64,000 nucleotides of DNA from Alloascoidea hylecoeti (GCA_001600815.1 BCKZ01000004.1:957566-1021565), one strand, 5' to 3'; numbered from the stretch's first letter, positions 1,596 through 64,000 are shown. The notes: generated from the letters alone by a model not told the origin. Numbers and translations are program-made.

Positions 1596-4500
1596 TTATC
1601 CTTTCACGACCTTCTGAAAACTACTCCACGCATTTTTATTCCAAGGAGCTAGCATTATTGCTCGTTGATTTGCTCCGAATGTTCCTTGATTAACGTATTC
1701 ATCCGCTAGAATATTAGCATCAATATCCTCAGATTCCGATCCAATCTTTAACGCTGTATTAGAATTAATATTTGTCCATGCTTTAAACCTATTTGGCCAC
1801 AGCATTACCGCTCGTAACCATGGTTCCAATTCGTTAGAGCCTAATTTTTTCTTCAAAACCGATAAGAGATACTGAACATTGTTTTCACTATCTGTGTTCA
1901 GCTCCTCTAAAGATAATGATTCTAATTCCTTAGCGCTAGCTTCAATTAAATCGTCATTACCCTCAACAAAACTCAAAGCCCCTAGTAGTAACACCACCGA
2001 TATGGAAGATCCTGATTGCTCAATATTGGCATATAATTCATCTAGTGCAGCCTGCTTTTCATCTTCTCCACCATTAGCCCAAAGTATTTGAGCTAGTAAT
2101 ATGATCATAGCTTGTGCTTCATCAGATTCCACCAAAACTTTCCTGAATTGTTGTAGTGCTGAACTGAAATCTTTCAAGAAATAAAAGGCCAAGCCAGAGG
2201 TGACTAAAGCAGATAGATAGCATCTTTTCGTCTCCTTTTTTAATTCACTCGTATTCTCACTATCCTTTTCATCTTCATCATTATTACCGTCGTCAAGCAA
2301 ATCTAAAACTAACTGTGACTCTTCAAGAGCATTATCATACTCTTTCAAACCTAAGTTCAGTCTTGCTAATTGCGCTTTGGCAATTGCATACTTGGCAAGA
2401 AGTTGGTCCGTTTGCTCTTCTTCATATTTCGACTCTACATCATCTGTATACTGAGTGATGAGTTGAATAGCAGAACCATATTCCTTAACACGCTCAGCTT
2501 CTAGACCAAAAACGTTATACGCTATTGAGGAATTTGAATCAAAACAAATGTATTGATTTAAAGCAACAAGAGCGCTCGAAAGTTCCTGCACTGCTAAAGT
2601 AGATTGAGAATTACCCCAATTCTTTTCAATTGCTGATAGTCCATATAGTAATTTAGGAATTTTATTTGTCCCCTTTGACATGACATATGAATGTTCAAAT
2701 AAGTGATGTGAGTCAGTACTATTACCATTGATTGATGAAATGATAGCCTGTCCAGCCCATGTATTCGCGATTTCCGGATCTTGTGTTTGGGCTTTTTGAT
2801 AAGCCTCCAAGGCTAGTTCGACATCTCCAAAACTAAGATATAACGTTGCAAGATTCGACCAAACTAACGGTTGACGAGAGCTTAGACTTAATGCACGAAT
2901 AAAGCAATGTTGGGCAACTTTAGGATTCACATCTATAGCTGCAATTCCAAAAACATTCCAAGCCTGGAAGTTTCTGTTTTCTAATTGAATGCTTCGTTTA
3001 ATTGCAGTAATTGCAGAATCCAAGTAACCTTTCAATGACTTTCCGGTTTCATGATATACATTAAGTTCAGAAAGTGCTAGATTATACCAAGAAAGGGAAA
3101 GAACATTCCGGCTTGGGTTGATGACCGCCAATTCCCGCGTATTATTTTTATAACATAAGATATATATCATAGAAACAATCCTGTGTAATTTCCAATTGGA
3201 TTTATACTCTGAGTATTCAGTTATTTTCTTTAAAATGGAGTCAGATGAAACTTCATCATCTTTAGTAATTTCTATTAATATTTCAGAATCTTTAATCCCG
3301 GGTCCTTTAATTTTTAAAATATTTATGAAATTCTCAAGTGGGAAGGACTCAAGTTTACTCTGAACGGTTAAAAATGTTCGACACACTTCGCCAGCTTTCT
3401 CCCAGAGAATATGTGAAGCATTCTCTAATTTTATGGCTTTTTCAATGATTAAAGTCGCTTTATTTGCAATCTCTAAAGCTCTTCCAAAAAAACCCTGCTC
3501 TAACAAGCTATCTGAAGAAGCTAACAAAGTTGTAATTAATTCCATTAACAAACACTTTTCTTCTGGTCTTGATTCACAAATATCTTCATAAATTTCAATA
3601 GCGTTCTCAAATTCACCAATATATCGTGATACCATTCCAATCATAAACTTTGTATGCCAATCGTCCTTTAACAACAAAGATCTGTTAAACACCTTTAAGG
3701 CAGCATCAAATTTACCACAACCACAATAAGCTTCACCAAGACCAAACCAGGAATTTGAATCGGTAGCATCCATACGAATAGCTGATTGGAAGTATTCAAT
3801 AGCTTTTACATAATCCGACCCATTCAAAGAAGTAATTCCCAACATTCTATAAGGCCAACCGGAATCAGGCCCAGACTGATTTTTGAATGCATTTGATGAA
3901 ATCACTCTCTCAGATAAGACCTGTATGAATTCCCAATCTTTAGCATCAGCAAAGCTAGAAACTAAACGTTTGGCTGCATCAATTTCCGAAGCATCTAATT
4001 CTAAAGCTTTATAGAAACATTTTGATGCGCGTTGTTCATCACCAGCAATATCAGAGTAAAATATACCAAGTGCGGTATAAGAAGGAGCGTAGTTATTACT
4101 TTCTCTCAAAGAACTTATCAAACTTTCGAATGTCTTATTCAAAAGCAGGTCATTTTCATCGTCAGGATTGTTATCAAAGTGTTCATTCCAATAACTGCGA
4201 GAGATACGCCACCACATTTTAGCCCTAATTTCTCTGGAGAATAAATCATTACCATCAACAATTTTCAAACATTCATTGAGTTTTTTCCGGCCTTTTTCAT
4301 GTTGATCCATTAGAATTTCACACCATGCTAACTCAATCAAAGCTTCTGTATTCTCTGGGTGAGCTGAAGAGACTTTCTCTAGAAGCTCTTTTGCATCATC
4401 AAGATAACCTTGCTCAACGAGAATTAAACCCTTACCTACTTGTGCTGTGGTATTTGAAGGACTACTTTTCAATACTTTATCGAACAATGCAATAGCTTTG

Positions 4501-6098
4501 TTGAAATTTTTTGGGGTTTCATAATAAATGTATGATGTACCTAAGGAAACACTAAGATATTCAACTGATTTATCAAGTTTAAGAGAAAATTGGGCAGTTT
4601 GTTGTTTACAAAACTGAAGTCCATTTCGAGAAACCTCCAATGAAGTTTCAAACTCTTTTAAGTGATTATAATATTGACTTAAAATTCGATATGATAAAAT
4701 AGTTGGCTGTTCTTCAAGACCTTGCGTCATTATACTGAGTATTTCAGCGCTTTCCATTTTAACTGCTTCATCTAGAGCCTCATCTGTTTCTTCAAGTTCG
4801 TCTTTATCATCTGACTCTTCCTCATTGTCTAACTGTTTCTCTAACTTTTTTTGAACTTTAATTTTCAGCTCCTCTTGGACTTTTTCTTCTTCAGTTGGTT
4901 CTGAAGATTTAGGGAAAGGTGAAATATCTGATTGTGAATAAGCATATAAAACTTTAGCCAAACCGGAACTGGCAAAAGTAGTCATAAAATGTTCTAATAA
5001 ATTGAAGTCAAAATGAAAGAGATCATCATAATCATTCCAGTCAATTGTGATAATCCAGGCTAACTCTACATTGCTATTGACAGTAACCATACCTTCTGCT
5101 AGCTTTTTGACTTCCTCTAGCAATTCCAACCTATCTTCTTCATTCGGCGAAATTTTCAACAAGTCATACTTTTCTTGCAACAGTTTCCCTTCCATTTGTC
5201 TTCGTTTGAAGTCATCCATACACCAATCACAATACATTTGATATAATTTAGGCAATTCTGATTTTGATTTGAATTCATATCTAACTTCATTTAATTTATG
5301 TTCTCTAAGTTCACCTTTTGGTGGTAATTTCAAACTAATTTTTGCAATTTTCTTATTCATTTCTGTATTTTCTCTATCCTCAATAATTTTGATCAATTTA
5401 GTGAGAGTATTATGAGGAGCTGGAATACAATGTGAGATAATGTGATATATCTTGGAATCTGGAAGTAATAATCGGTAAAACGTTTCTGTCTTTGAATGAA
5501 GTTAGTTAGTGAATTAATAACATATTTTAGCAATATTGGAAAAAAGGGAAAAATCATTTACCTGTTGGATGTTTCCATGGACTTTCATAAATGTAGTCGA
5601 TTGCCTAACTTGTGTTGCAATAGTTGCTTGTTTTCCTGATACCTTTTCGAATGATTCTATTATATGAGTAAAAGCAGTTATAAAACCATCACAATCTTCC
5701 ATAATTTGGTATAAATTCATTAGACCTTTCCAATGCAAAACATTATCAGGATCTGTATTATTATTCTTTGCTTTTATATACTTTTTTTTTGCTTCTGGAT
5801 AGTTTTCGGTGATTTCATAATTTTTGGCTAAAAGGACCAATGTCATGTAATCATTGGGATCCTCCTCAAGTATTGCGTTCAATATATCAAAAGCTTTTTG
5901 ATTATTATGTAATTCAATACATTTTCTCGCTTCTTTTAGCCGTTTTTTAAAGGAATCTGAGATTGGATTTTTTTTAACGGAACCTTTAGAAGATGTTTCC
6001 TTTGGATGTTTTTCCGTGGAAATTGTGGAAGATGGTTTTTTAAGACGCTTCCTAGTGGAACTCGATCCATCCTTCGCTTGATTTTTAATGGAACTCAT
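1596..6098 (-). CDS. SKI3: Superkiller complex TPR protein Ski3, ~1476 aa; exons 6098-5562 and 5489-1596
   Basis: Two TPR-rich ORFs joined by a 72-nt phase-0 intron 5561-5490 (GTAAAT...ACTAAC...AAG). Motifs 'NYAPSYTALG..Y', 'KCFYKALELDA' and 'QHCFIRAL'. Confidence 0.92.
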
Positions 6099-7506
6099 GG
6101 AGGTTAATTATGATTGAAAGGTATTACAGAACAGAGCTCGAGCATACAATTAAGTTATGAACAGAACCTTCAAATCGTTTAGTTACCCTTCCATTGTATC
6201 TTCCAGTTACCCAATTGATCTCAACTCCACAATAAGATCTTATAATAATATTAATTATACCATTCACAGCACACCGTATTGAGTAGCTTATATAAATAAA
6301 TTATTGAGTCTGCTCAGCTGAAAATAGTTGAATTGATGTTATCAACTATTCCAATTCATACCCCGTTATTAGTTAAGTCTAAGATATATCCCCAATACGT
6401 ATCAAACCACAACAATTTTACTACTGAATTCTAAATAAAGAGCCAATTAAAACACTATTTCCTTGATTTCAACTTAATTAAAGCATAAAAAATTATCTTC
6501 GCCTTTTTTCTCGGATGCCATTATTTTTGCATCTCATTCCTTCGATTTCACAATGTTCACATATGCACCAGTTTAGCAATTGCAACTTTGCAAGTACGAT
6601 AGTAAAAACATAACAAACATAAAAAATGTTATTTTTAGAATATGAAATATATTGGGATTTATCATCTGATTATATTATAAGTAAAAGAGCATGCTAAAAA
6701 TGATTATATATTACTCATTTCACTCTACAATTCCTAACAACACGGTTATTCCAAAACATACCGCCAAAATATGTCGTTACAACATCCATACCAACTATTA
6801 CCAAGTACAATCTGTATATATTGGAAGGCCAAGTGAATCGTGTTTTCGAATGAATATCTATCATTAAAGTCCAATTAAAATGATGGTGTTATTTATTTTT
6901 GCTCCGCCCCACTCATTATCTCCCTATCACAACCCACCGGTATCATCACCTGCTAACTAAATCAACGAATTTGTTGGGGGAGTTCTTCGGTGCATTAATG
7001 TGCATATGGCGTTTATCCATTTCTTAACCGTTGAATCATTCTTGGGCCAAAGGAGGACTCACCACGGAATACGGAACCGGGCATTTGGGGGTGTTGTTAA
7101 CGAGTATAAGCTGCAAGATCAGCATAGATTATATAGTGGATTTAATACGAAACTGAGTTGTTAAACGGCAGAAGTGTCGAGCCCTTATCATCTAGGTGTA
7201 TGCTACGGCTGTGACGTGTGGACTTGTCGCACGTGTCTTCACTCACCGTTTTATTTGGTTAGCTCCCTTAAATCATATATTGGGGAAGAAATGTAAACGG
7301 ACTTCGAAGTTGAGGATCTCAAGTAAATTGTAATATCACCACCCTGCTAGATCTCGATTAGATTACAATCATGTCACTAAATACGAGCCAAGTTGGGGTA
7401 ACTTCACAGATTACGTACCCATTAGCTAATTAGTATCACGTGCGATATACTCTATCTTGGATATATTTTGGCCCAACTTCTATAAAGCTTTATATTTAGT
7501 TTCCAA

Positions 7507-18504: not shown

Positions 18505-20706
18505 TTAATAAAAATGTGTAAATTTCATTGAATCAGGATGAATTGGCCATTCTCTTTTCAATTCGTTTAATTCATTCCTTATTTGAGCAGCTAAAAATGG
18601 TGTTAATTGATTACATGTTGCAACTTCTGGTGTTCGATCATAATCTATTGGATTAAAAGTATCAAAAACTAAAATCTTAGATGAAAAATGAACACAAGGA
18701 TTAAATGATATTGAATCATCCATAGATGCATCATACAGTGTATTAGTATTATTATCTGAAATTTGTGATAAAAATGGATTTTTAGAATGATCTCTATTAT
18801 TTAGTGGTGGTAATGGAGGTGGTTTTATTTGAGGTGGATTTGATGTTTTTGTTGTACTATAATTTGGTTGAGTTTGAGAAGTTGGTATCACTGTTCCATT
18901 TGTACCTTTTATAGGCGCACCTGCTTTATTAGCTAATGATTGTGCTGAATTGTTAACAGATGTAATTAATTTTTGTTGATAAGAAGAATAACCACTTAAA
19001 TCAACATTACTATGATTTTCTTCATCATGAGTAGTAAAACTATGTGAAGATCTTGGTGTATCTGTAGAACTAACAGGTGGTGATGAACGTTTTTTTCTTA
19101 AAGATTGAAATCTTGCAACAGATGCTGGAGTTGGGGTTGAATTTTGAGATACTGACATTGTTGAAGTTGCTATTGATGCAGAACGAGACCGGGGTGATGT
19201 AACTGTGGTTTCATTAATACCTAATTTATCAAAGACATCAAGATTAATACCAAGGTTTATACCAGTGTCAAGTTCCGGTAATTCAAAATTGATAAAAGAA
19301 TAATCCGTTGACATCCTATTATTATTATTATTATTATTATTATTTGTAGGTTTTGTTGAAGTAGAAGTAGAAGGATCAGAATCATTTGATTTTGTATTAA
19401 AAGAATTCTTTTCAGGTGTTGGTAAAGGACTAATTTGAACTTTGAAAGAAGGATTTGTTTTTTTTAAAATACTTGCTCTTCTTGTTGTAATACCTAACCC
19501 AACACCAGCATCAAGACTATTCATTTCACCTAATTGACTACCACGTATACTTCTTGGACTTTTTGGATCAGTATCTTGATTTAAATTAACATTTTCAAGT
19601 GATGATATAACTTCAACAATAAAATTATCATCAGTTCTAAAACTCATTCTAACATTTCTTTTTCTTTCTTTTTCTTTTTGTTTTTCTTTTTCATCTTCAA
19701 TATCTTCTTCAATAATTTGAGAATCATTAATTATTGTATTTCTGTTAAAAGCATCATCCTGTTCTTTAATTAATTCATCTAAATTTTTATTTGCATCATT
19801 TGGAATTATTGTTGAATTTGGTCTTGATCTTTCAGATATAATTGATCTTATTGATCTAATAGATTTATTTCTTTCCATTGTATTTTTTCTTGCAATTTCT
19901 AATGAAGCTCTAATTAAATTTGATTCTTGTGGATCTAATCTTTTAGGAAAAATTGTATCATTTAATAAATTTTTTTCAAAATCACTATCTATTGAAGTGA
20001 TATTATCATTGTCATTAATATCTTTAGAATTTGTATTATTAGATAAAGAAGTTGAAATTTGAGGTTTTGAAGTCGGAACTTGAAAAGAAAAAGATAATGG
20101 GGCTGAAGTGACAGATGTTGGAACAGAAGAAAATGAGTTATCGTATTCATGGGCATAATTATTATGTGAGGTACTATTGAAACTCTCATGAGTTAATTCA
20201 GGTTCATTAATATGATCATCGAAATTTGATGTCATTATGGACGCACTCGAAGAAAGATTTGAATGAGAGGTATTTCTTTTAAATATATTAAAGATTGAAG
20301 ATTTCTTCTTCAAGGTATTTCCACCGCCATTTATTATAGAACCTTGGGAGGAGAATAAAGGGAGCGTAGCAGATGATTGAATGGAAGTGGCCGTGTCACT
20401 CTTGACTAGTTGGGAGTAAGCAGACACGCTTCTTTGTTTTGGAGAACTTGGATAGCTTTGATCAGGAAGATTAAGAGACTCTGAGCTTCTTCCTATTTTG
20501 AAGAGGGAGTAAAACGAACGTTTTCTTCTTGGTTCTCTATGAGGTTTTCCATTTCGCACGTCCTTCGCGTTTGGGTCTCTTGGGTCGACGGATTGTTCCC
20601 CCACCCCCGGAGACGAGGTGGGGGAGGGAGATCTTGAAGGCGACGCAGAGGAGTAGACGGAGTAGGAGGATTCTGAGGGCCTGGAAGGAATGGACGGCCT
20701 TAACAT
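18505..20706 (-). CDS. BNI4: Bni4-like bud-neck PP1 (Glc7) targeting protein, ~733 aa
   Basis: Ser/Asn-rich body. C-terminus 'VHFSSKILVFDTF..DYDR.PEVATCNQLTP.LA..IRNELNELK...IHPDSMKFTHFY' matches the conserved Bni4 tail. First ATG at 20706. Confidence 0.82.
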   Translation of the reverse strand: MLRPSIPSRPSESSYSVYSSASPSRSPSPTSSPGVGEQSVDPRDPNAKDVRNGKPHREPRRKRSFYSLFKIGRSSESLNLPDQSYPSSPKQRSVSAYSQLVKSDTATSIQSSATLPLFSSQGSIINGGGNTLKKKSSIFNIFKRNTSHSNLSSSASIMTSNFDDHINEPELTHESFNSTSHNNYAHEYDNSFSSVPTSVTSAPLSFSFQVPTSKPQISTSLSNNTNSKDINDNDNITSIDSDFEKNLLNDTIFPKRLDPQESNLIRASLEIARKNTMERNKSIRSIRSIISERSRPNSTIIPNDANKNLDELIKEQDDAFNRNTIINDSQIIEEDIEDEKEKQKEKERKRNVRMSFRTDDNFIVEVISSLENVNLNQDTDPKSPRSIRGSQLGEMNSLDAGVGLGITTRRASILKKTNPSFKVQISPLPTPEKNSFNTKSNDSDPSTSTSTKPTNNNNNNNNNRMSTDYSFINFELPELDTGINLGINLDVFDKLGINETTVTSPRSRSASIATSTMSVSQNSTPTPASVARFQSLRKKRSSPPVSSTDTPRSSHSFTTHDEENHSNVDLSGYSSYQQKLITSVNNSAQSLANKAGAPIKGTNGTVIPTSQTQPNYSTTKTSNPPQIKPPPLPPLNNRDHSKNPFLSQISDNNTNTLYDASMDDSISFNPCVHFSSKILVFDTFNPIDYDRTPEVATCNQLTPFLAAQIRNELNELKREWPIHPDSMKFTHFY
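19318..19343 (-). repeat. (AAT)n run encoding poly-Asn in BNI4
   Basis: attattattattattattattatt on + strand. Confidence 0.8.
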
Positions 20707-20780
20707 TACTGGGTGCTGGAGAGAGGGGAGACTCTTGGAGGACGGACTTCTGCAAACACAAAGCAGTTGAGGCGTCGCGG

Positions 20781-20787
20781 TTACCCG
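20781..20787 (+). promoter_or_regulatory. Reb1-type site in the 140-bp BNI4/SWS2 divergent promoter
   Basis: TTACCCG midway between the two ATGs (20706 and 20847). Confidence 0.55.
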
Positions 20788-20846
20788 GAGTCCGTTCCTC
20801 TGTTTTGCACTTTTTTGCAACACCACTGGCGACCTCTATAATTATA

Positions 20847-21319
20847 ATGGTGCTCATCAACGGTCGCAAGTTCCGAGGGAACCAGATGATAAGGGTATGT
20901 CCGCTGCTCCTTCCCCGTCAATGCTGTCACTAACACCGCACTAGATTGCTCTGGCCACCAAGTTCTTTGGAATCGGGCCTGCCAATGCCCAGCAAATCTG
21001 CTCCAAGCTGCTGTTTTACCCAGAAATGCGGATGCATCAGTTGGGAGAGCAGCAGATCCTCGCCATTTCCAAGGAGCTGACCAACTACACAATCGACAGA
21101 GAAGCCAAACGGGAGGTGCTCAACAACATTGCGATCAAGAGAGATATCGGTAGTTATGCCGGTATGCGACACTCTTTGAGTCTGCCAGTGCGTGGTCAGC
21201 GAACAAGAAGCAACGCCAGAACCGCACGACGGCTCAACCACATCAAACGACGTTTATATTCAACCGATGCCTCTCCGTCTCCGTCAAAATGGTCCAACTG
21301 GCTGGCATGGCTTTTCTGA
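20847..21319 (+). CDS. SWS2: Mitochondrial ribosomal protein uS13m, 140 aa; exons 20847-20894 and 20945-21319
   Basis: 50-nt intron GTATGT...CACTAAC...TAG. Spliced '[27 protein letters not shown]...[25 protein letters not shown]' (S13 signature). Confidence 0.95.
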
Positions 21320-21435: not shown

Positions 21436-24158
<2,723 letters not shown>

Positions 24159-24808: not shown

Positions 24809-26140
24809 TTATTTCTTATAGCCTAATTCTTCTAAGCTTGATTTAATTGCGCTGAAAACAATATCAGCATCATTTCTACCTTCTTGAACGACAGAAACAC
24901 CCATATGACCTATTCTAAAATAAGAAGTTGCACGGCCTTTGTATAAACCACCAGCTAAAACAACACCTTTTTTAGCAATCAAAGGTAATAAGTCAGCATT
25001 TGAAATTCCATCAGGTAAATAAACAGCTGTTAAACCATTGGCAGAAACTTCTGGAGTATTTGAAACTAATTTAAGTCCTAAATCATTTTTCAATTGATTT
25101 TTAAAGTTTTTAGAAACTTCAGCATGTTTCTTAAATCTTGCTTCAATACCATTTTCAAGTACTTCATCTAAAGAGGCATTTAAAGCAGTTATTGTTTGAA
25201 CTGCAGGAGTTGCAAAATAAGCACCATTACCAGATTCGTAGGCATTCATAATTGGAGTCCATCTTTTTAAACTTGCAAAGAAAGTAGAGTTTTCTTTTCG
25301 GTTTAATGCAAATTTAACAGCTCTTTCACTTGCAAAAGAAACAGATAAACCAGCTGGACAACTCAAAGCCTTTTGAGAAGCAGTCAATACGAAATCAAGA
25401 CCCCATTCATCAAATCTAATTTCTTCAACACCAACGGAGCAAACACCATCAACAATAATAAGAGTTTCTGGTGAAACTTTATGAACAATTTCAGATAAAG
25501 ATTTAATATCACTAACAACAGCAGTTGAAGTATCAACATGTGTCACAGTAATAATTGCATATTTGTTTGCTTTTAATTCTGCTTCGACTTGTTTAAGATC
25601 AACAGCATCACCACATGGAGCAGATAAGATTTTAACATCAGCACCATATGTTGAAAGACAGTCAGCAAAGGAATCACCAAAAAATCCAGAAGATAATAAT
25701 AAAGCCTTGTCACCTTTATTAATTAGATTGGAAGCAACAATATCCCAACCAAGAGTACCAGATCCAGCAATGACATAAGGTTGAGCATTTGAATCAGTTG
25801 AAATGAAGACTTTTCTTAATTTTTTCAATACTTGTTGAAAAGTACTAATAAATTGTGGAGAAGTATGAGCTTGAGAAGGTGTTGCCATTGCAGCAAGAAC
25901 TTTATCAGAAAACTCGATTGGACCAGGAATCATGGTCAATGGATGAGCAGCTTGATGATATTCAAAAGACATTTTAGATTTGAAAGTATTTGATAATGGA
26001 CGAGAAAAAGTAGATGATTGCAATTGATGGTTAACAATTGAGGAAGAGGATAGAAATTGAGCTTTGGACGATGTGGAAGAGAAAAGAAAAGGTTTTGGTT
26101 TGGCAGCGATCTTATTTAAATATGAAAAAAGCCGGGTCAT
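24809..26140 (-). CDS. AGX1: Alanine:glyoxylate aminotransferase (class V PLP); long form 443 aa from 26140, short form 387 aa from 25972
   Basis: 'LTMIPGPIEFS', 'GSGTLGWD', 'THVDTST', 'VDGVCS', PLP lysine in 'TASQKAL', 'YFATP', 'FRIGHMG'. Confidence 0.94.
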   Translation of the reverse strand: MTRLFSYLNKIAAKPKPFLFSSTSSKAQFLSSSSIVNHQLQSSTFSRPLSNTFKSKMSFEYHQAAHPLTMIPGPIEFSDKVLAAMATPSQAHTSPQFISTFQQVLKKLRKVFISTDSNAQPYVIAGSGTLGWDIVASNLINKGDKALLLSSGFFGDSFADCLSTYGADVKILSAPCGDAVDLKQVEAELKANKYAIITVTHVDTSTAVVSDIKSLSEIVHKVSPETLIIVDGVCSVGVEEIRFDEWGLDFVLTASQKALSCPAGLSVSFASERAVKFALNRKENSTFFASLKRWTPIMNAYESGNGAYFATPAVQTITALNASLDEVLENGIEARFKKHAEVSKNFKNQLKNDLGLKLVSNTPEVSANGLTAVYLPDGISNADLLPLIAKKGVVLAGGLYKGRATSYFRIGHMGVSVVQEGRNDADIVFSAIKSSLEELGYKK

Positions 26141-26398
26141 AATAATGATTGGGGAGAGCACGTGCGAGATTTAGATTTAGATAAAATGATAAACCAAATA
26201 AAAGAATATTAAATATTATAAATATTATGAATTAATTAAAAGCCGTTTAAACTCGGAGTTGAAAACTTAACAAATCCTTACTTTGGAGGAGTTTGGGGGA
26301 GTTCTGAAATATCCCTGGCCAATGGCGGAGAAGAAGTTGTTGGGCCCCGGATTTTTCCTTTTCCCTTTTCGCTTATCGGGTCGGCTGGTTAACGTTGT

Positions 26399-27310
26399 TT
26401 AAACGGTTCTTTTCTTCCTTTTGGGTCCCAATTTGCTACGAATCTTTTCAAATTCTTCTTCATCGATTTCATCAATTAACTTGTGCTTTTTGTGTTTCTT
26501 TGTGTTTGTGGCATATTTGGCTTCCAACTTATCAATAAAACTGTCTAAACCATTGGATTTGGATCTTTTCGATAGTATTAGAGATCGGAGTGCGTCTTCT
26601 TCTTCTTCTTTACTTTGTTTGCCGTTGGGTTTTTTCTTTATTTTCTTTAAATTTTCATCTAATCCTAATTCTTTCGCCAATTCTTCTGCTTCCTTCGCCT
26701 CACTTTTCACCTTCTTAAGTTGTTTCTTAATCTCCTTACTTCTGTTCTTTTCGTACTTTTTGAACTTATTCGTTGTTTTAATATCTTTCTTATCCAATGC
26801 CTTCTTTAACAACCTAAAAATCCTTTCTTCTTGTTCTTCACTATATTCTAAATGTGCAATACCTTCAAATATTTCATCAATATCCCCACCACTTGATTTG
26901 TAAATCTCTAATATATCATCGTATTCTTCATCACTTCCTTGATAAGCTATTCTATCATTTTCAATTAATTCAGGTGTAACATCAACATTTTTAATCGTAT
27001 CAAAATATTCTTTCCATGAAAATCCATCTTCATCAATATTATTTAGATTTTCAACAGATTTTGTCAAATCATATCTTTGTTTACGCTTTTCATCTGATAA
27101 TACCCAATAAGCAAATGATATTTGTTGAAACTTTTCTTTACTTTCTTCTTTTTCCTCTTCTGTAGATTTTGATTGTAATTTATCAGGATGATGTTTTAAT
27201 GCTAATTTTCTATATGCTAGCTTTATATTTGCAGGAGTCAACGTTGACGCTTGCTCTTCATCAAGTGATAATACTTCATATGGGTTTAAATCAGGATATG
27301 GTGTAGACAT
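26399..27310 (-). CDS. J-domain protein, DNAJC9-like, 303 aa
   Basis: N-terminal J domain with HPD, then 'W.EYF', '[15 protein letters not shown]...GDIDEIFE', '[14 protein letters not shown]' and '[12 protein letters not shown]' (DNAJC9 family pattern). Confidence 0.8.
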
Positions 27311-27470
27311 TGTAGATCCAAATGTGAACAAAAAATATATAAAAAATATATTCAAAGAAATCTCGCGTTTTCGCGTTTTGGGAAAGTATAAACTGAGTGT
27401 ATGGGTGTACTAACATATAGTGTATCAATAGAAAAAAATTCAAGATCTTTGATCTATAAGCGCTAGCATA

Positions 27471-28394
27471 ATGGTTTATTACTTCAAGTCGGCTGGATCA
27501 AGTAAAAGTATTGATCCTCCTCGGATGCTTTATATGGGGAAACATAAGGAAGAAAGTATGTTTACATGCTGAAGTGTCCTAAAAGGTTAACAAATTAAAC
27601 TAATCTTATAAATAATAGATGAGGACTTGATTAAATATGGATGGAAAGAAGATGTTTGGTATGTCATATGAAATAATATATTTATAAATTCCTTAAAGTA
27701 GCTTTGCTAACTGTTTTATTTCTTAGGGTATGCTATGAAAAAAAATTGGTTTTGTGGTGATAGAACTAATGTAATCCAGTTTCATGTTGATAATCTAAGT
27801 TCCGCCCACGTTTATCTCAGATTACAGGAAGGGGAAGAATGGGATTCAATACCCGAGGAGATCTTAATTGGTATGTTTTCAAATATCTTCAACAATTAGA
27901 ATTCCAATTATCCAATCAAAAACATCTTATTAATTAATATTATAATTTTAATTACAGACTGTGCACAATTAACAAAGGCAAACTCAATCGAAGGAAATAA
28001 AAGAGATAATATAACAGTAATTTATACACCATGGTCAAATCTACGCAAAACAAAAGGCATGGTAACAGGCCAAGTTGGGTTTAAAAAAGACAAATTGGTT
28101 AAGAAAGTGTATATTGAAACAAGAGAAAATCCAATTGTAAACAGATTGAATAAAACAAAAAAGGAAGAATTTCCAAATCTTCAAAAATTAAAGTTAGATC
28201 ATGTCAGAAAAGTAACTGATGTTGAAAAATCAAAACAAAAGGCAAAAGAAGATAAGAATGCAAAATTAGAAGAAGAGAGGAGACAGTTAAAATGGCAAAA
28301 GGAGCATGCCTACGATGATTTATTTAATGAGGATAATGTAAGAGCCTCTAATAATCAGTTTAGAGACGAAGACTACGAAGATGATTTTTGGTAG
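27471..28394 (+). CDS. JLP2: CCDC25/Jlp2-family (NFACT-R/DUF814) protein, 217 aa; exons 27471-27555, 27619-27658, 27727 (1 nt), 27780-27870, 27958-28394
   Basis: Spliced 654 nt gives 'MVYYF...[38 protein letters not shown]...[15 protein letters not shown]...[19 protein letters not shown]...[12 protein letters not shown]...YEDDFW'. Four GT-AG introns. Confidence 0.93.
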
Positions 28395-28653
28395 ATTAGA
28401 ATATTAAGATAATTATTAATTACCATAATAAATGTACTTGTAGTGGTATTCGTTATTGTCGCTGTAAATATAAGTATAAACGTATTGTCATTGTATTATT
28501 CATTTGTATTAAGAAAAATTATATATGGGACAATGTATTAACCTGACAAATTAACCCTTTTAAAGTGTCAATAGTAACCATATAGAACTTCCCATTTTCT
28601 TTCATTTAATGATTCCGATTCTCTTTAAAATAAACCGTTGATTCTACATAAAT

Positions 28654-28954
28654 TTAAGGATTTAAATCACCTGCAAAGTTACCATTATCTACAAATACGT
28701 GTTAGTTTATCAAATTATATCACTCTATATCCCGATAATAAGAACATACCTCTTTGCTCATCCCATTTTGCAATCCAATCATTTGGACATAAAGAGTTAT
28801 AAGTTCTCCAAAAAACCTTGCATGGAGCAAATTCTTCGCCCTTGGCTGTAAGGCATTTGTGGTAGTCAACATATGATTGCCAGCAATGTCTTGTCTGGTT
28901 TTGATTTGGGAAACGAGAGTCAAACTGAACTGTTTTTAACTGAGATTCTGACAT
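28654..28954 (-). CDS. COX12: Cytochrome c oxidase subunit VIb, 79 aa; exons 28954-28750 and 28688-28654
   Basis: 'FDSRFPNQNQTRHCWQSYVDYHKC...C..FWRTYNSLCP..WI.KWDEQR|DNGNFAGDLNP'. Intron GTATGT...ACTAAC...TAG. Confidence 0.97.
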
Positions 28955-29185
28955 TATTTGTGATGGTGTGAAAGAGAAGAGCGGAGGAATCTGCGTTTCT
29001 TTGTGGGCTCACTTTTCTAAGCCCTCGCTCTGATTGGTTGTTTGCTTGGTGCTCAGTAATACGCTTGAACAGTTCCTGTCTCAGTACATTTCAGCATGAA
29101 ATATCTATATTTTTTTTGAAGTACAAAACATTTTTTGTATAGAAATCTTCTAATTTTTAAATTTGTTTCTTTTTCTTTCTGTTCA

Positions 29186-31364
29186 ATGAGTAAATCTCTA
29201 AAAAATCGTATGTTCATTCATGGTAATTCGCAAATATTAGTCCTATCTCTAACTGTCAATAACTAATATAGTCAGTGCGTTTGAAGCTGCTAAAAATAAT
29301 CAACTCCATCATTTTGTTTCCTCAGATTCAATCCCAAGATATGAAAATGATGATACCGATATAATATCTGAAGACGATAATAATAATTTCAATAACAATT
29401 ACATTAATCATAACGAAGGTTTAATCCAAATTTCTAACTTTATACCAAACGATTTAAATTTAAGAATTGAAGATGATGATAATGAAAATATTCATATTAC
29501 ATTAAATGATTTAAATGAATCATTGGTTGTTCAAGGATCATATTTTATCTCAGTCTTATCGGGATCTGTTTCAATTTATGGTGCAATAATCAATTCAAAA
29601 TCAGAACCGTTACCTGTTTTTGCACCATTAACGCATGCATTACCAATAATTAAACCATTTAAGTTTGATGGTGATAATGAAAATAAGATTGAAATTAAAA
29701 TATCAAATCTTTATACTGGGCATGAAAAAATTGGCACATTAAGTACCCATTTTCGTAGTATTTGGGGTAATCATTATACCAATAATAAAAATAATATTGG
29801 TTATGAATATTTAGATAATATATTTAAAGATAAATCATTTTTCATAATATTTAACACAACTCAATTATTGAATTTACTTGAAATACCTGATTCTTGGAAA
29901 GAAACAACAAACGAATTAATAAAAGATATTAAAAATTCAAAATTATCATCGGACGCATCTGATAGACCAATCGTTATATTAATCATTGGTTCAAAATCAT
30001 CTGGGAAGTCAACATTTTCAAAATATTTATTAAATTCTTTATTAAAACAAGATCAAGATCAAAATTCAGAACAAATTGAAGATGATGCAATATCATATAT
30101 TGATTTAGACCCTGGTCAACCTGAATTTTCACCACCAGATTCAATTTCATTATCAGTACATCAAGAACCGGTTATAGGTCCACCTTTCACTCATCCATGG
30201 AATACGGACAATAAAACCAATATTTCTTCCCATTATGTTGGTTATTCATCACCAATGGAAGATCCAGATAGATATAAAAAATTGTCCCATGACTTACTTG
30301 AAAATTATTTTTTTCAAAATCAAAAAATTAATAGACCATTAATTATAAATACGATAGGTTGGATTAAAGGATTTGGTGTTGAACTGTTAAAAGAAATCGT
30401 CGATTTTCATCTTGTGGTTCCTTCTCATATTGTTCATTTAACACCTATAGCATCATTAAAGCAACAATTATCTGCTAATGATAATAATAATAATTTAACA
30501 CAAGCACAAATTTTAATGAATGAACTTACAAGTTCAAATCCAAATATCAATACTAAATTCATAGAAGGTATCTTTAATGCAAATAATACAAATAAATATT
30601 CAGCGCCTAAATTGCGTGAGTTAACAACGTTGTTTTATTTCCATTGTAAAGGATATAAATCTATTCATAATAATATATCAATTCCAGTATTTGATGATTT
30701 CAATCTACTTATAACAAATCCTCCTATCCAAGCACCATATGAAACTGAAATTTCATATTCTTCAACCGAAGGTGTATCCACTACAGTTATGCTTGGATCA
30801 TCAATAAACACAGTTAATTCAATTATGTCATTTTCAACATTACAAGCTTCAGTTGTTGGAATTTACTCAGTTAATAATGATTTTTTTAATTTAAAATTAG
30901 AAAATTTACAAAATTTATGTGAACAACAGAAAGAAAGATGTATTAATGATAATATACCATTTTTCCCAATTGCACCTGAATCTTTTTCAATTTCTGGATT
31001 TGATAATTATATTTATAATCGAAATAATGATGATTTTAATGATTCATTATTATCATTAGAGTCTTCAAAATTTATTGGATTGGCTATTATTCATTCAATT
31101 GACATCTCCAAAAATATCATTAATATATATACACCAATTAAGTTAACTATATTACAATCAATATCTGAACAAAATAGAACTGTTTTAGTACGTGGTAAAT
31201 CCTTATTACCGAGTTGTGAACTGTATCAAAAGGGATTATTTGATAAGGAAATTAGAAAGGGTATTAATTTACCTTATATATCTTTTAAAAAGGGAAAGGA
31301 CTCGCATGTTGGAGGTAAAGCAAGGAGAATTAGGAAAATAAGGAGAGGTAGAGCTCAGAATTAA
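29186..31364 (+). CDS. GRC3: Polynucleotide 5'-hydroxyl kinase Grc3/NOL9, ~704 aa; exons 29186-29207 and 29272-31364
   Basis: P-loop 'GSKSSGKST', 'DLDPGQPEF', 'INTIGWIKGFG', basic C-terminus. Intron 29208-29271 extends the frame to 'MSKSLKNLSAFEAAK'. Confidence 0.9.
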
Positions 31365-31703
31365 AGCAGATAGATTAACTTATATCAAATTATGTAATGA
31401 ATGAACATGTTTAACGAAACATTTAATGAATAATATATAAGAAATGACCATTCATATATAGAGTTTTGTTTCCTAATAGTGAATCTATTAAAATATTAGT
31501 ATTATTATTTATTTAAGATTAATACGACGTAGAGTTTGAGCCTAATCATATCATTTCATTACGGTTAAAGATCAGATTTATGAATTCGAAACTGTCTTAA
31601 GCATCCAAAATTAAATAAAATAGAAATTAGGCTTTCCAACAAGAAACGTTGTGTTCGTATTTCACCTAGTTATCATTCAATGTATAGCATAAATAAGAAG
31701 ATA

Positions 31704-54241: not shown

Positions 54242-57200
54242 ATGTTAGTTGGCTCCACGAAAAGTGTCACGGATGAGCTTAAAATTCTGCCTCTTCTAAA
54301 AGAATCGGCTCCCGCTTCCCAAGAGCCTAAGACGAAGACCCATCCATCCAAATCAAGACATAAGAAGAGAAATGCGAGGAGGACATATTCCTGCGGTATG
54401 TGTCGTCGGATGAAAATCAAATGTGATAATAAGGTTCCCTGTTCCTCATGTATCAAACACAACAGAATTAGTCAGTGCTTGGACGATCCAGCGAATCCTC
54501 CATCCCCTAAAGTCGATTCAGCGTCAAGCCGAAGCACTAAAAAGGTTGAAAGCATATCTCTTAGTTACCAACAACATGAGTTACGTAATAAGAAACGCAA
54601 ATTGAGCGATTTCAATGTACCAACAATACCCGCTAGTGGGGCCGCCATCCAACTTTATTCAAAACCAGCTCATTCACACTCATCAGATCAACTTTTTCAA
54701 CAAGCTTCGACTCCTTATAATAAAAATGACAATCAAAATTCACACCCGACCCCAGCACATACAATGATGAGAGGTCAATCCGAATCCTCAGGTTTACCAT
54801 TTGCGGTCCCTAAATTTACTGGAAATGGACGTAGAAAGTCTTTGTCACCTCTTTCACAACCACAATCCATGGCTTCTATTATTCCGCATTTTAATTCGAG
54901 CAATTGTTCATGCACCAGCTCGCCGCCACTCTCAGCACCTGTGACCAATTCAAATTCCTTCGGACAAAATCTTTTTGATGAATTGCCACAGCCGGTTGGT
55001 GAAAGCACAATTTCAAATAAATTTGAAGAATGTCAAGATTTTGATCTTAGCCAGTTTCAGTTTGGCGTTCCGTATGCACCATCTTACACCATTAAAAATA
55101 ACTTTGACTACAACAATACTAATGCAACATCAATTATTGGTCCACGGGGAAATAAATTTCATTCAGATCAAGACAAAGATGCTGAGATTAATAGACTTCG
55201 AATGAGTATCGCACATCTTACAGAAAAATTAAGCAAATATTCTTTAAACAATATTTATATCTTTAATGAACCTGAAATTAACTGGAAAAATAGATTAGTA
55301 CAATTAATTCCAACTAGAGCTAAATGTGATGCTATTATTGAAGTATATTTAAGAAATGTTGATTATATTTTTCACACAGTTCATCATCCAACTTTTAGAG
55401 CTGAATTAAAAGAATTTTATGAATTGACTGATGTTAATGAGGTCAATCTTCATTGGTTATCATTGCTTTTTATGGTTCTTGCGATTGGTTGTTTACATCT
55501 ACCAAAAAAATTGGGGAAAGAACTATATGGAGATAATGAAGATACTGGGATGATATGTGAAAATTGGTTTAAAGCATCAAGACAGGCACTACAGGCAGCA
55601 AATTCAGATGAAGATGTTCAACTTGTTCAATTACAAACCTTTTCATTGACACAGGGTTATTTAGCTTTAACAAAACATGCGGAATTAATAAATTCTTTAT
55701 TAGCTAAAACTATCAGTCAAGCTTTAGCATTAGGATTAAATGTTGAATCAAAAGAAGATAATCAATTAACAAGAGAAATGAAGAGACGAATATGGTGGGA
55801 TATCTGTGGCTGTGATACGTAAGTTTTGATTCATAATTTACAATTATCGGTTATCTGGTCTAACATTTATGATTATAGATTTCGCGCTCTGACCCTTGGT
55901 AGACCACCATTAATAAGATCATATCGGTCACGAGTCCCATTACCTTCAAATATTGATGATATTGATCTTTCTGAGTCATCTAATGCTACTCCTAAACCGA
56001 TGCACATCCCAACGGATAATTCCTTGAATATAATAAGAGCTAAGATTATGCAAATATTAAATGGTGTTTTTGAATATTCACAAGATGTCTCATCCCCTAT
56101 TTGTCACACATTATCTGAAAATAATGATAATAAAATAGAACAGAAAGAAATTGGAAAAACAACAAAAGAAAAAGAAATTTTAATATTTAAAGGGCTTTTA
56201 AGAATTGATCAAGAATTATGTGAATATGTTAATGTTAGACCATGGTATTTTAAACTTGATAATAATGGAAATTTACCAAATTTGGATGGTTATTCACATC
56301 CTGGTAAATCTACAAAAGATATTGAAGATTTCAAATTAATGATCCGTTTCAGTCATCATATGATTCAAACATGCATTTGTATTCATAGATTTAGAGTTTA
56401 TCAACCATATTTATCATTGAATATTCCAATTGCTTGGGAGGTTTGTTTATCATCTGCTAAAACGATGTTTAGTGTTTATAGGAAATTACGACGAAAGTAT
56501 CCAAATTTGCAAAAGATAGGATATACAATGGCACAAGTTCATCAATCATTTTCATGTAGTGTTATTCAATCAATGATGTTATTAATTGAAAAGGATATAA
56601 CACAAGAAAATATTGAATATTTAGTTCATGATACAGATGTATTTGTTCAAGATTTAGCTGTTCTGAGCGCACAGTTTTATTATACAACATGGGATCAAGG
56701 TCTCGAAGTGATGAAGAAATTAAGAAAGTTATTCTTAACTAAAGCTAGTCATCGAAAGAGACATTCAACGAAATCATCCTATAATAGGAATGAGATTAAT
56801 TACGAACAGCGGGAAGTGATTGTAAAATCTGAGGAGAAAGATATAAATGTAGATAGTAATGAAAGTGATGAAGAAGAAGAAGATCAATCATCAGATCATA
56901 AAAATGACATATTGAACCACTTTTCAAGCTTTTTTGGTGGTAAGAAAAACACGGAGACATACTTAAGAGAAAATAAAGTTGATCTTATTATAAATACAAA
57001 GAAACAACAAGGTAATAGGAGTGATTCCAAATCAAGCTCAAGGCACACTAGCCAGGTAGTGGATGATTTAGAATTAAAAGATGTATCAGCACCAGTTCTA
57101 CGTTCACAAAATAGGGGAGAAAGGGAATTAAATTATGGAACAATTATCTCAGGAAATAATACTAGCCCCAATTACAAGTATGGGTCTAATGGTGTCATTA

Positions 57201-57757
57201 CAGATGATCAAGGAAATGTTAGTGAAGGGTCAATTTCACCTGAAGTTGTTCAAGATTTTCATCATAGTCATAGTAATTCTTTATCAGCGAATGATTCTCC
57301 ACAAAACAATTTTGGAAATCAAGTTGGAAATGTTCCCTCGATGGATGTTGTTGCAGAGTCATTCAAAGTCTGGGATGAAGTTCAGGATATTGATATGAAT
57401 AATTTTAGTACCCGTAGCAATAACAGTATTCAGTTGAATATGGGGATGGCTGAGCTGAATATGAACAGTAATAACTACGCACAGAACAAAGAATTAGGCT
57501 ATGAATATTTGGTTTCAAATAATGATACGGTATCAAATGGATTTATCTGTCATGGAAAGGAAAATACAGCTAGGACAGGTTATGGGATGAATCCTAGTAC
57601 TGGTACAAATGGGTTTGTTGCAATTGGTGGTGGAAATGGGGGCAACGTGAACATGAACATGAACACGGATGTTGCGGATCTATTCAGTGATGATTTATAT
57701 ATGGAGGAGTTAAACGAGATGATCATGGGATACTCAGGATCAGGATACAGGTTTTAA
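54242..57757 (+). CDS. Zn(II)2Cys6 fungal transcription factor with Fungal_trans middle domain, ~1151 aa; exons 54242-55818 and 55879-57757
   Basis: 'CGMCRRMKIKCDNKVPCSSCIKHNRISQC' cluster and 'REMKRRIWWDICGCDT|FRALTLGRPP...PSNIDD'. 60-nt intron GTAAGT...TCTAAC...TAG joins the two ORFs. Confidence 0.92.
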
Positions 57758-62900: not shown

Positions 62901-64000
62901 ACTCGGAGCTTTCTTGGAGTGGCGTTGGCAATAATTACTTTTTTGCGAACTTGTGAAGATCTGCTCGCTTTCGGCATGGTTCGTTTGGGAGAGTGTCTCG
63001 GACTGTCTCCGCGCCATTGGTTAAGGGAGGTTGGAATATAGAACTATAGATAACGATGATCTCATTTATAATTGTATTCCATAACGTTAGCCAGCAGCAA
63101 AGCACATAAGGCCTTATATATATTAGATCTAGATACAATACATATAATTATAAGTATATATATATGAGGCGGTATAAATTACAGTATACTGCCTGGAGCT
63201 CAGATCTAGAAATGAACGTATTAGGTATTACGTAGAGTCATATTCAAAACGCTGATTATACATACGACAGTTTTATTTAAGTTGTAATGTAACAAAGTCA
63301 GTGTGGGGATTGGGCAACGTGCCATCGCCGAACCCGATTTCTCACCATTTAGGTAACAATCAACGTATTTATGCCTTCAGCTTTCACGAAGTATAATACA
63401 TAAGTACTTGCGTTTTTTGTTGTTGTTGCATATAGCGCTAGCTATAAGGTTATAGAATATACATGCTATAACTTATAACATATATTCTTCATATTTGTCC
63501 ACCGTTATCTATATAAATTTAAATCATACATTTTTGATATATGTTAAGAGTTATCAATAAGTTTCACCCTCTAGATGTTTCAAGCAAGGTTGAATATGAA
63601 TTTAAAAGAGGGTTTTCGGTTCTAGATTTGCTTAAAGTTTATCTATTATTATACCCAATAAATGGCATAATCTTCTCAGCCGGCTCTTCGGAGGTTCTTG
63701 GAATTCATGGTCTGTGCAAATTTAATATAAGGACTCGGAAATTTCAAGAGTTATTACCAGATTAGGTATAATATGATCACATGATCGCGTTTACGTCAAT
63801 ATTAACAATAAGGTAAACGAGGAGTTGCATATGAAGAATAGTCAACCATTCATTTGAGATCCAACCTCCTCCCACCACCCTTGTCCACTCTGCTGGAAAA
63901 TGGTAAGTCTCGGTGATTATGAATTTATATAGGTTGCGATTGCAATTTGTAGATCAATTCGAGATATTGCATAGCGTATGAGAAAACGGTTGATGGTTAG

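Follow-up and report, generated by a model that had tools for sequence, protein, structure and literature searches.

A one-nucleotide exon predicted in the JLP2/CCDC25 gene of the budding yeast Alloascoidea hylecoeti and in orthologous loci of filamentous ascomycetes

In this study, the JLP2/CCDC25 gene was analysed in a stretch of 64,000 nucleotides (nt) of DNA from Alloascoidea hylecoeti (GCA_001600815.1 BCKZ01000004.1:957566-1021565), hereafter called the window, with positions counted from its first letter. A lone G at position 27727 was found between two complete introns of this gene, the upstream one ending in AG and the downstream one starting with GT, and it is very probably a genuine internal exon of a single nucleotide in this budding-yeast gene. 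The reading of G27727 as an obligatory exon is strongly supported, at the level of the sequence, by the reading frame, by a conserved Trp and by the core AG|G|GT, which was present in 44 of 44 orthologous loci having an intervening sequence at this site.

Exon 2 (27619..27658, plus strand, as are all features of the gene) ends with GAT GTT TG, the last two letters being bases 1 and 2 of a Trp codon. It is followed by intron A (27659..27726; 68 nt), which has the donor GTATGT, the branch motif GCTAAC at 27706-27711 and the acceptor TTAG. The single-nucleotide exon (27727) supplies base 3 of the conserved Trp42 codon and is at once the first base (+1) after acceptor A and the last (-1) before donor B. 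Intron B (27728..27779; 52 nt) has the donor GTATGC, the branch motif ACTAAT at 27765-27770 and the acceptor CCAG, and exon 4 (27780..27870) begins with TTT CAT GTT GAT, encoding Phe-His-Val-Asp of the NFACT-R core. The distance from the branch A to the intron end was 16 nt in intron A and 10 nt in intron B, and in both introns AG was absent between the branch motif and the 3′ AG. A preliminary description of this DNA had named the end of exon 2, both introns, the lone G and the start of exon 4; all of its coordinates and motifs were confirmed by re-reading, including the presence of a separate donor, branch point and acceptor in each intron.

The five-exon model including G27727 gave a stop-free coding sequence of 654 nt, specifying 217 amino acids (aa). 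Splicing from donor A directly to acceptor B, which omits G27727, left 653 nt and shifted the frame, with a stop 8 codons later, as had been predicted; retention of either intron A or intron B likewise brought in a stop. G27727 is needed both for the reading frame and for the conserved Trp. The stronger claim of the preliminary description, that only the joining of TG, G and TTT works, was correct for the conserved motif with its Val-Trp and incorrect for openness of the frame alone, since the Val codon and the following TGG together form a weak donor (GTTTGG at 27654), which with the acceptor at 27779 also gives an open frame of 648 nt, without Val-Trp. When the spliced JLP2 protein was aligned with 98 near-full-length relatives (99 rows), the column of the split Trp contained W in 74 rows, and the other 25 rows showed a gap, C or Q, or odd insertions precisely at the junction.

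Orthologous loci were sought in metagenome contigs, starting from an alignment of 26 proteins and using search patterns in exon 5 (QLTKANSI and [IV]T[VI]IYTPW), so that the structure of the junction had no bearing on which loci were retrieved. Of the 342 relatives found, the best 80 were sorted according to their structure at the Trp|Phe site. TG was followed by an intervening sequence in 43 of these loci, and locus L024, which is cut by a contig end, has the same core, making 44; each of the 44 contained an intron homologous to intron A. In 33 of the 80 loci, Val/Ile/Leu-Trp-Phe was encoded without an intron at the site, all 33 keeping the Trp, and 3 were without the junction region. None of the 77 informative loci had a single intron at TG|G or TGG|TTY. 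The comparison with orthologues proposed in the preliminary description thus supported its reading in every locus with an intervening sequence, among them a second yeast locus (L046) that is syntenic with the window.

The intervening sequences, that of the window included, formed 33 distinct clusters at a similarity of at least 90%. Each of the 33 could be split in exactly one way into two GT...AG halves with a length of 40 nt or more, the resulting intron lengths being 45-90 nt for A and 44-163 nt for B, and mostly 49-63 nt, the size of small fungal introns. When the interiors were shuffled, such a split was obtained in 2.2% of trials per locus (0.022), with a maximum of 5.8%; the summed log10 p was -57 over clusters taken as independent, a value which is overstated since the clusters are homologous. 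Donor B carried A at position 3 in 25 and G at position 5 in 26 of the 33 clusters, compared with 25 and 29 for donor A; judged from its composition, the site following the lone G behaves as a 5′ splice site. Among the 33 introns of each kind, 29 A introns and 28 B introns had a branch-like motif (NTRAY) 5-40 nt from the 3′ end.

A locus resembling Cenococcum (L066) allowed the genomic layout to be compared with open reading frames (ORFs) free of introns. Between L066 and P0289, an annotated protein of Cenococcum geophilum, 210 of 211 residues were identical; the model of P0289 jumps from Glu-Asp to Phe-His by way of a GTCTGG donor, and Val-Trp is dropped. Two Logan-derived ORFs, P0093 (213 aa, on contigs of about 1.3 kb) and P0089 (199 aa), matched L066 at 211 of 213 residues across six intron gaps and at 196 of 199 residues, respectively, and both read Asp-Val-Trp-Phe across the junction. 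Since a gene with six introns cannot otherwise give an uninterrupted ORF, P0093 and P0089 presumably come from RNA. The first matched residues of P0089 lie within intron 1, which suggests a start inside this intron as expected of a partly spliced transcript. These ORFs indicate that the homologous layout yields an mRNA keeping a G. This alone does not separate a one-nucleotide exon from a non-canonical intron shifted by one base; the distinction between them is drawn from the conservation of AG|G|GT in the orthologous loci, not from the ORFs matching L066.

Such a shifted intron would run from 27660 to 27779 (TA...AG) or from 27659 to 27778 (GT...CA); the Trp codon would then obtain its G at 27659 or 27779, leaving the internal AG|G|GT without function. 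It gives the identical mRNA and protein, and TGG is contiguous at 27657-27659 in the window and at the corresponding place in every locus, as every donor begins with G; alignment software would display a transcript in this form. However, a functionless interior should drift, yet AG|G|GT was found in 33 of 33 clusters against about 0.022 expected per locus, with donor-like A3 and G5 after the G, branch-like motifs before it and both halves at least 44 nt, the size of small fungal introns. Neither TA...AG nor GT...CA is a standard U2 splice-site pair, and a shifted intron is quite improbable here. A single intron of 126 nt, from the weak GTTTGG donor in the Val codon at 27654 to the acceptor at 27779, would instead produce a protein of 215 aa without Val-Trp. 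Its frame of 648 nt is open, and introns of this type are common in public fungal models, Asp-Phe being read directly in 13 of 26 and 13 of 23 anomalous entries of the two surveys reported below. Against this stand the 33 intron-less loci, every one of which encodes Val/Ile/Leu-Trp, and the Cenococcum-like P0093 and P0089, which retain the Val-Trp dropped by the genome model P0289; moreover, GTTTGG deviates from the GTATGT of the likely introns in the window. A 126-nt intron is accordingly rated highly improbable.

Because a single base separates the two readings, an assembly error or a decaying pseudogene, with one base missing or extra so that one ordinary intron is enough, was also considered. 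Four sequencing runs from three studies contained all sampled words of 25500-31500, none of them being on record as RNA. One contig from each of three runs, one per study, was compared over 26300-29300, and 0 differing letters and 0 gaps were found; one of these runs may be the source of the window, hence at least two independent assemblies agree. An insertion, deletion or assembly artefact at the JLP2 junction is very unlikely, since the contigs of three studies match without a difference, and the extra G that the preliminary description had named as a possible flaw was not seen in these contigs. The remaining ORF is intact and conserved, and the layout recurs in 44 unrelated contigs; the chance of an assembly error or a pseudogene is negligible. 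Compatible with a one-nucleotide exon is the proposal, made in outline in the preliminary description, that the pair acts as a regulated switch, in which splicing from donor A to acceptor B would skip the G, shift the frame and lead to nonsense-mediated decay, tuning the level of a ribosome-rescue factor. The stop 8 codons downstream after skipping and the very long retention of the layout are in its favour. The difficulty of shedding just one intron of a pair, however, accounts for the long retention equally well, and the pair is dispensable, as 33 of the 77 informative loci are without both introns; such a switch appears doubtful.

Several points weigh against a one-nucleotide exon at G27727. 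The donor of intron B, GTATGC, ends in C, and the other likely introns of the window start with GTATGT. A loose scan for intron motifs over the whole window showed no enrichment (17 matches; mean of Markov shuffles, 20.4); splice motifs alone prove little, and the weight lies on reading frame and conservation. As TGG is contiguous, mature mRNA alone cannot separate the exon from a shifted intron. The RNA origin of P0093 and P0089 is deduced from their lack of introns, and their source is a filamentous fungus and not the yeast of the window; one metatranscriptome of a related study gave only two short pieces less than 90% alike, neither of them on JLP2. Among the 80 loci, an all-against-all blastn comparison at 90% or more for pairs of transcript and genome yielded duplicate contigs only. 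The classification covered the best 80 relatives, and most taxon labels of the loci denote the nearest named protein only. Finally, we infer the order of splicing, the two separate lariats and the steric argument given below.

The one-nucleotide exon would be produced as follows. The pre-mRNA would contain two independent and complete introns of the U2 type, A with 68 nt and B with 52 nt, each with a GTATG donor, a CTAAY branch site and a YAG acceptor, and two separate splicing reactions would join TG, G and TTT. The product would be the sole possible Trp codon followed by Phe, within the conserved Asp-Val-Trp-Phe-His-Val-Asp of the NFACT-R domain. The lone G would thereby be under three constraints, as part of the Trp codon, as the favoured G after an acceptor and as the favoured G before a donor. 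Positions -3 and -2 of donor B are the acceptor AG of intron A, and whatever binds at one of these sites would overlap the other; because of this overlap, two spliceosomes probably cannot sit together, and the introns would be excised in turn. On paper, A or B could go first, since each first product would be an ordinary intron with ordinary exons. Stepwise removal of this kind, already suggested in the preliminary description and put forward by Guo and Liu for Arabidopsis APC11 (PMC4674806), is plausible and would be akin to recursive splicing with a single base left over. An mRNA in which donor A was joined straight to acceptor B would be out of frame and would probably be degraded.

The pattern of presence and absence of the introns was all-or-none, with 44 loci having both, 33 having neither and 0 having one, which is in keeping with loss by recombination with spliced complementary DNA (cDNA). 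The pair would be lost only together, probably since the conversion tract in cDNA-mediated loss cannot end in an exon of one nucleotide. Origin of intron B by duplication of intron A was also considered and found no support; local alignment of A with B scored better than shuffles (p<0.05) in only 1 of the 33 clusters.

The locus most like the window was L046, which is 62% identical in exon 5, is AT-rich, has GTATG/TACTAAT signals and contains all four intron positions of JLP2 in the window. The gene order JLP2 (plus), COX12 (minus) and GRC3-like (plus) is common to the window at 27471-31364 and to L046 at 2469-6185, with identities of 62% for JLP2 exon 5, 57% for COX12 and 29% for GRC3. On this sequence comparison, L046 represents a second, well-diverged yeast with the orthologous layout. 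Contigs with the one-base-exon layout resemble Wilcoxina, Penicillium, Sordariales and Cenococcum. L037 is 95% identical to a Wilcoxina mikolae protein and is assigned to Pezizomycetes, an early branch of Pezizomycotina; the annotated Wilcoxina protein is without Val-Trp. The nearest named proteins of other two-intron loci were those of Penicillium capsulatum (77-86%), Parathielavia (82%) and Thermothelomyces (76%), and Cladosporium was nearest for most of the intron-less loci. A search of the protein atlas to place the more distant two-intron loci (L035 type) taxonomically returned no usable match. Since both introns are found at the same codon and in the same phases across yeasts and several filamentous classes, inheritance of the two-intron layout from the common ancestor of budding yeasts and filamentous ascomycetes is the simplest explanation and is considered probable. 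The layout probably predates the split between these groups. The recent intron gain, datable among related yeasts, that the preliminary description implied is contradicted by the sharing of the layout with Pezizomycotina, including the Pezizomycetes-like locus, and the layout is hence regarded as old.

In recursive splicing at zero-nucleotide ratchet points, a 3′ splice site abuts a 5′ splice site, and very long animal introns are removed stepwise with no base kept. The JLP2 site differs from these in its short introns of about 50-70 nt and in the single coding base that it keeps; with its sequence AG-G-GT and the retained coding base, it was rejected as a zero-nucleotide recursive splice site. 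Stwintrons of Pezizomycotina, as described by Fekete et al. (2017, PMC5587772), consist of an internal intron interrupting the donor, branch site or acceptor of an external intron. They are like the JLP2 pair in requiring two splicing reactions per intervening region, in occurring in filamentous ascomycetes and in showing one-nucleotide relationships between intron positions. However, stwintrons as described are nested and keep no base, whereas the JLP2 introns lie side by side with one base kept. As both introns have an intact GT, branch motif and AG and neither interrupts a splice signal of the other, the JLP2 pair was not classed as a stwintron, and the analogy with stwintrons drawn in the preliminary description was abandoned.

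Single-nucleotide exons have already been published, in Arabidopsis APC11, Fusarium CYP621A and Coprinopsis, and the JLP2 case joins this known and very rare kind. The preliminary description rightly cited APC11 as a published case, and its list was incomplete, with the published Fusarium (PMC12940212) and Coprinopsis (PMC12230235) exons missing. The exon of Arabidopsis thaliana APC11 is A333 in an interval of 422 nt and was verified by reporters and base substitutions; its authors propose intron definition and removal of the introns one after another ('recursive'), and they report that rice APC11 paralogues have no intron at that site (Guo and Liu 2015, PMC4674806). Like the APC11 exon as published, the JLP2 exon is one base between two GT...AG introns, is essential to the frame and was missed by annotation. 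Unlike the bench-verified A333, it is a G completing a Trp codon between introns of 68 and 52 nt, with a layout found across ascomycete classes and known here from sequence.

The exon of one nucleotide in the Fusarium P450 gene CYP621A was described from 20-24 orthologues of one genus and 18 SRA reads, and its authors regard it as the second case ever and the first in fungi (Nelson and Syed 2026, PMC12940212). As in JLP2, the case is fungal, has an AGGGT core, was deduced from out-of-phase exon borders and a conserved motif, and causes misannotation; the total intron length is about twice the usual in both. The CYP621A G as described is the middle base of a Gly codon in one genus, whereas the JLP2 case spans budding yeasts to Pezizomycetes. 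In Coprinopsis cinerea, an annotation based on long reads and supported by transcripts lists 13 one-nucleotide exons in 13 genes (PMC12230235). These are fungal like the JLP2 case, in a basidiomycete host, and as published they show that such exons are spliceable and that the present one is not unique. Searching the five supplementary files of that paper for CCDC25, NFACT, DUF814 and PF05670 gave 0 matches. No paper linking CCDC25, JLP2 or DUF814 to a micro-exon, a one-nucleotide exon or a stwintron was found in the full-text literature covered, subscription-only papers lying outside this coverage.

New in the present case are the instance in a budding yeast with strict yeast-type signals, the syntenic second yeast lineage and the implied age. 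We think it likely that, of all one-nucleotide exons seen to date, the AG|G|GT exon of JLP2/CCDC25 is the oldest and the most widely retained, that it was already there in the ancestor of budding yeasts and filamentous ascomycetes as part of an inseparable pair lost only as a whole, that it is correctly spliced even by a strict yeast-type spliceosome of the GTATGT/CTAAY kind, and that it corrupts about 30% of public JLP2/CCDC25 gene models. One-base exons probe the lower limit of the spliceosome, and very few are documented. A budding yeast with signals like those of S. cerevisiae and with very short introns offers a setting to decide how, and in what order, two spliceosomes handle abutting sites. 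The occurrence at the same codon in distant ascomycetes, never as a single intron, amounts to a natural experiment on intron loss, apparently pairwise or not at all.

The effect on public models was surveyed with regular expressions applied to the junction. Among 119 relatives, 61 were correct (Val/Ile/Leu-Trp-Phe), 26 were anomalous and 32 were without the N-terminal part or unreadable; among 103 further relatives, the numbers in these three classes were 51, 23 and 29. Pooled, 49 of 161 readable public CCDC25 entries (30%) were wrong at this junction. Four forms of error were distinguished: deletion of Val-Trp, where the predictor took a GTNTGG donor; Trp-Tyr..., reading on into intron A; Trp-Val..., with intron A removed and the GT of intron B translated as Val; and Val-Cys...Gln-Phe. 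Among the genera affected were Aspergillus, Penicillium, Talaromyces, Coccidioides, Thermothelomyces, Chaetomium, Podospora, Pseudogymnoascus, Geoglossum, Phyllosticta, Cenococcum, Wilcoxina, Morchella and Tuber. Two annotations conflict at the junction in Penicillium vulpinum, and likewise in Coccidioides posadasii. Most of the wrong entries are without the conserved Trp of NFACT-R, and work on structure or function that used them would begin with a damaged sequence. Gene finders unable to emit exons of one nucleotide will repeat the error.

Some of the loci and ORFs differed from the two-intron layout in other ways. In two Teratosphaeriaceae-like loci (L008:2830-2900 and L010:430-490), the intron pair is absent and one canonical intron (GAG|GT...AG|GAC ATC TGG TTC) separates the Glu from the Asp codon, 8 nt upstream; this intron may have been gained independently or may have changed its place. 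The related database proteins P0077, P0096 and P0104 look mis-modelled around this upstream intron. Two contigs of about 1.0-1.1 kb (L003 and L018) contain a complete intron-free CCDC25 ORF with short flanks and resemble mRNA assemblies; neither is near-identical to any two-intron locus. A full-length JLP2 of 217 aa (P0002), with the L046-like motif Leu-Ile-Lys-Trp-Gly-Leu-Pro, was found on a Logan contig of 11,965 nt, and a related yeast may have lost all four introns, unless this contig is cDNA.

The other parts of the JLP2 gene were as follows. Exon 1 (27471..27555) starts with the ATG at 27471 and ends in phase 1 within an Asn codon, and its translation aligns with the N-termini of fungal CCDC25 proteins. 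Intron 1 (27556..27618; 63 nt, GTATGT...ACTAAT...ATAG) and the fourth intron (27871..27957; 87 nt, GTATGT...ACAG) are both at phase-1 positions identical to those in L046. The fourth intron is unlike the other three of the gene in that a CTAAY branch motif is absent; the candidates ATTAAT, TATAAT and TTTAAT lie 6-24 nt from its acceptor. Exon 5 (27958..28394) carries the TAG stop and matched Pfam NFACT-R_1 (PF05670) by itself with an E value of 9.3e-10 and 39.5 bits against a cut-off of 29.8, whereas exon 4 alone (30 aa) gave an E value of 4.6e-4 and 21.1 bits and fell short of the same cut-off.

A database search with exon 5 gave 2183 relatives, of which the best 120 were listed. The named relatives among the matches listed were CCDC25, Jlp2p or DUF814, mostly about 55-63% identical, and from the DNA of the window itself only an ORF call of 111 aa, and no spliced model, was among them. 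With PF05670 above its gathering score and a length of 217 aa, close to the approximately 210 aa of CCDC25/Jlp2 proteins (solo NFACT-R proteins), the predicted product of the locus is identified as CCDC25/Jlp2. According to a recent preprint (bioRxiv 10.1101/2025.09.04.673968), stalled ribosomes are the target of Jlp2, which serves as a release factor. The protein of the neighbouring ARG5,6 ORF (21768-24155) is 62-68% identical to 119 listed relatives, and all named ones among these are from budding yeasts (Ogataea, Pachysolen, Geotrichum, Sugiyamaella, Wickerhamomyces, Yarrowia and others); on this protein comparison the window is assigned to Saccharomycotina, with no close named relative among the matches listed.

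A scan of the window for AG followed by 1-3 nt and GTA[TA]G found no site having all three of an upstream donor and a CTAAY motif on each side. The JLP2 site had two of the three, GCTAAC remaining uncounted since the regular expression barred G before CTAA. When the introns were searched against Rfam, the single match was snoZ165 at 27558-27650 (intron 1 and exon 2), with 21.8 bits against a gathering score of 90 and an E value of 0.44; being far under the threshold, it was treated as a chance match and not as a non-coding RNA. Two long ORFs, at 18505-20823 (minus; 772 aa) and 55826-57754 (plus; 643 aa), had no Pfam match at an E value of 1e-5 or better. Further likely short introns with GTATGT and CTAAY signals were observed at 20895-20944 (plus), 29208-29271 (plus), 28689-28749 (minus) and 63206-63265 (minus), one of them at the start of the GRC3-like gene and one within COX12.

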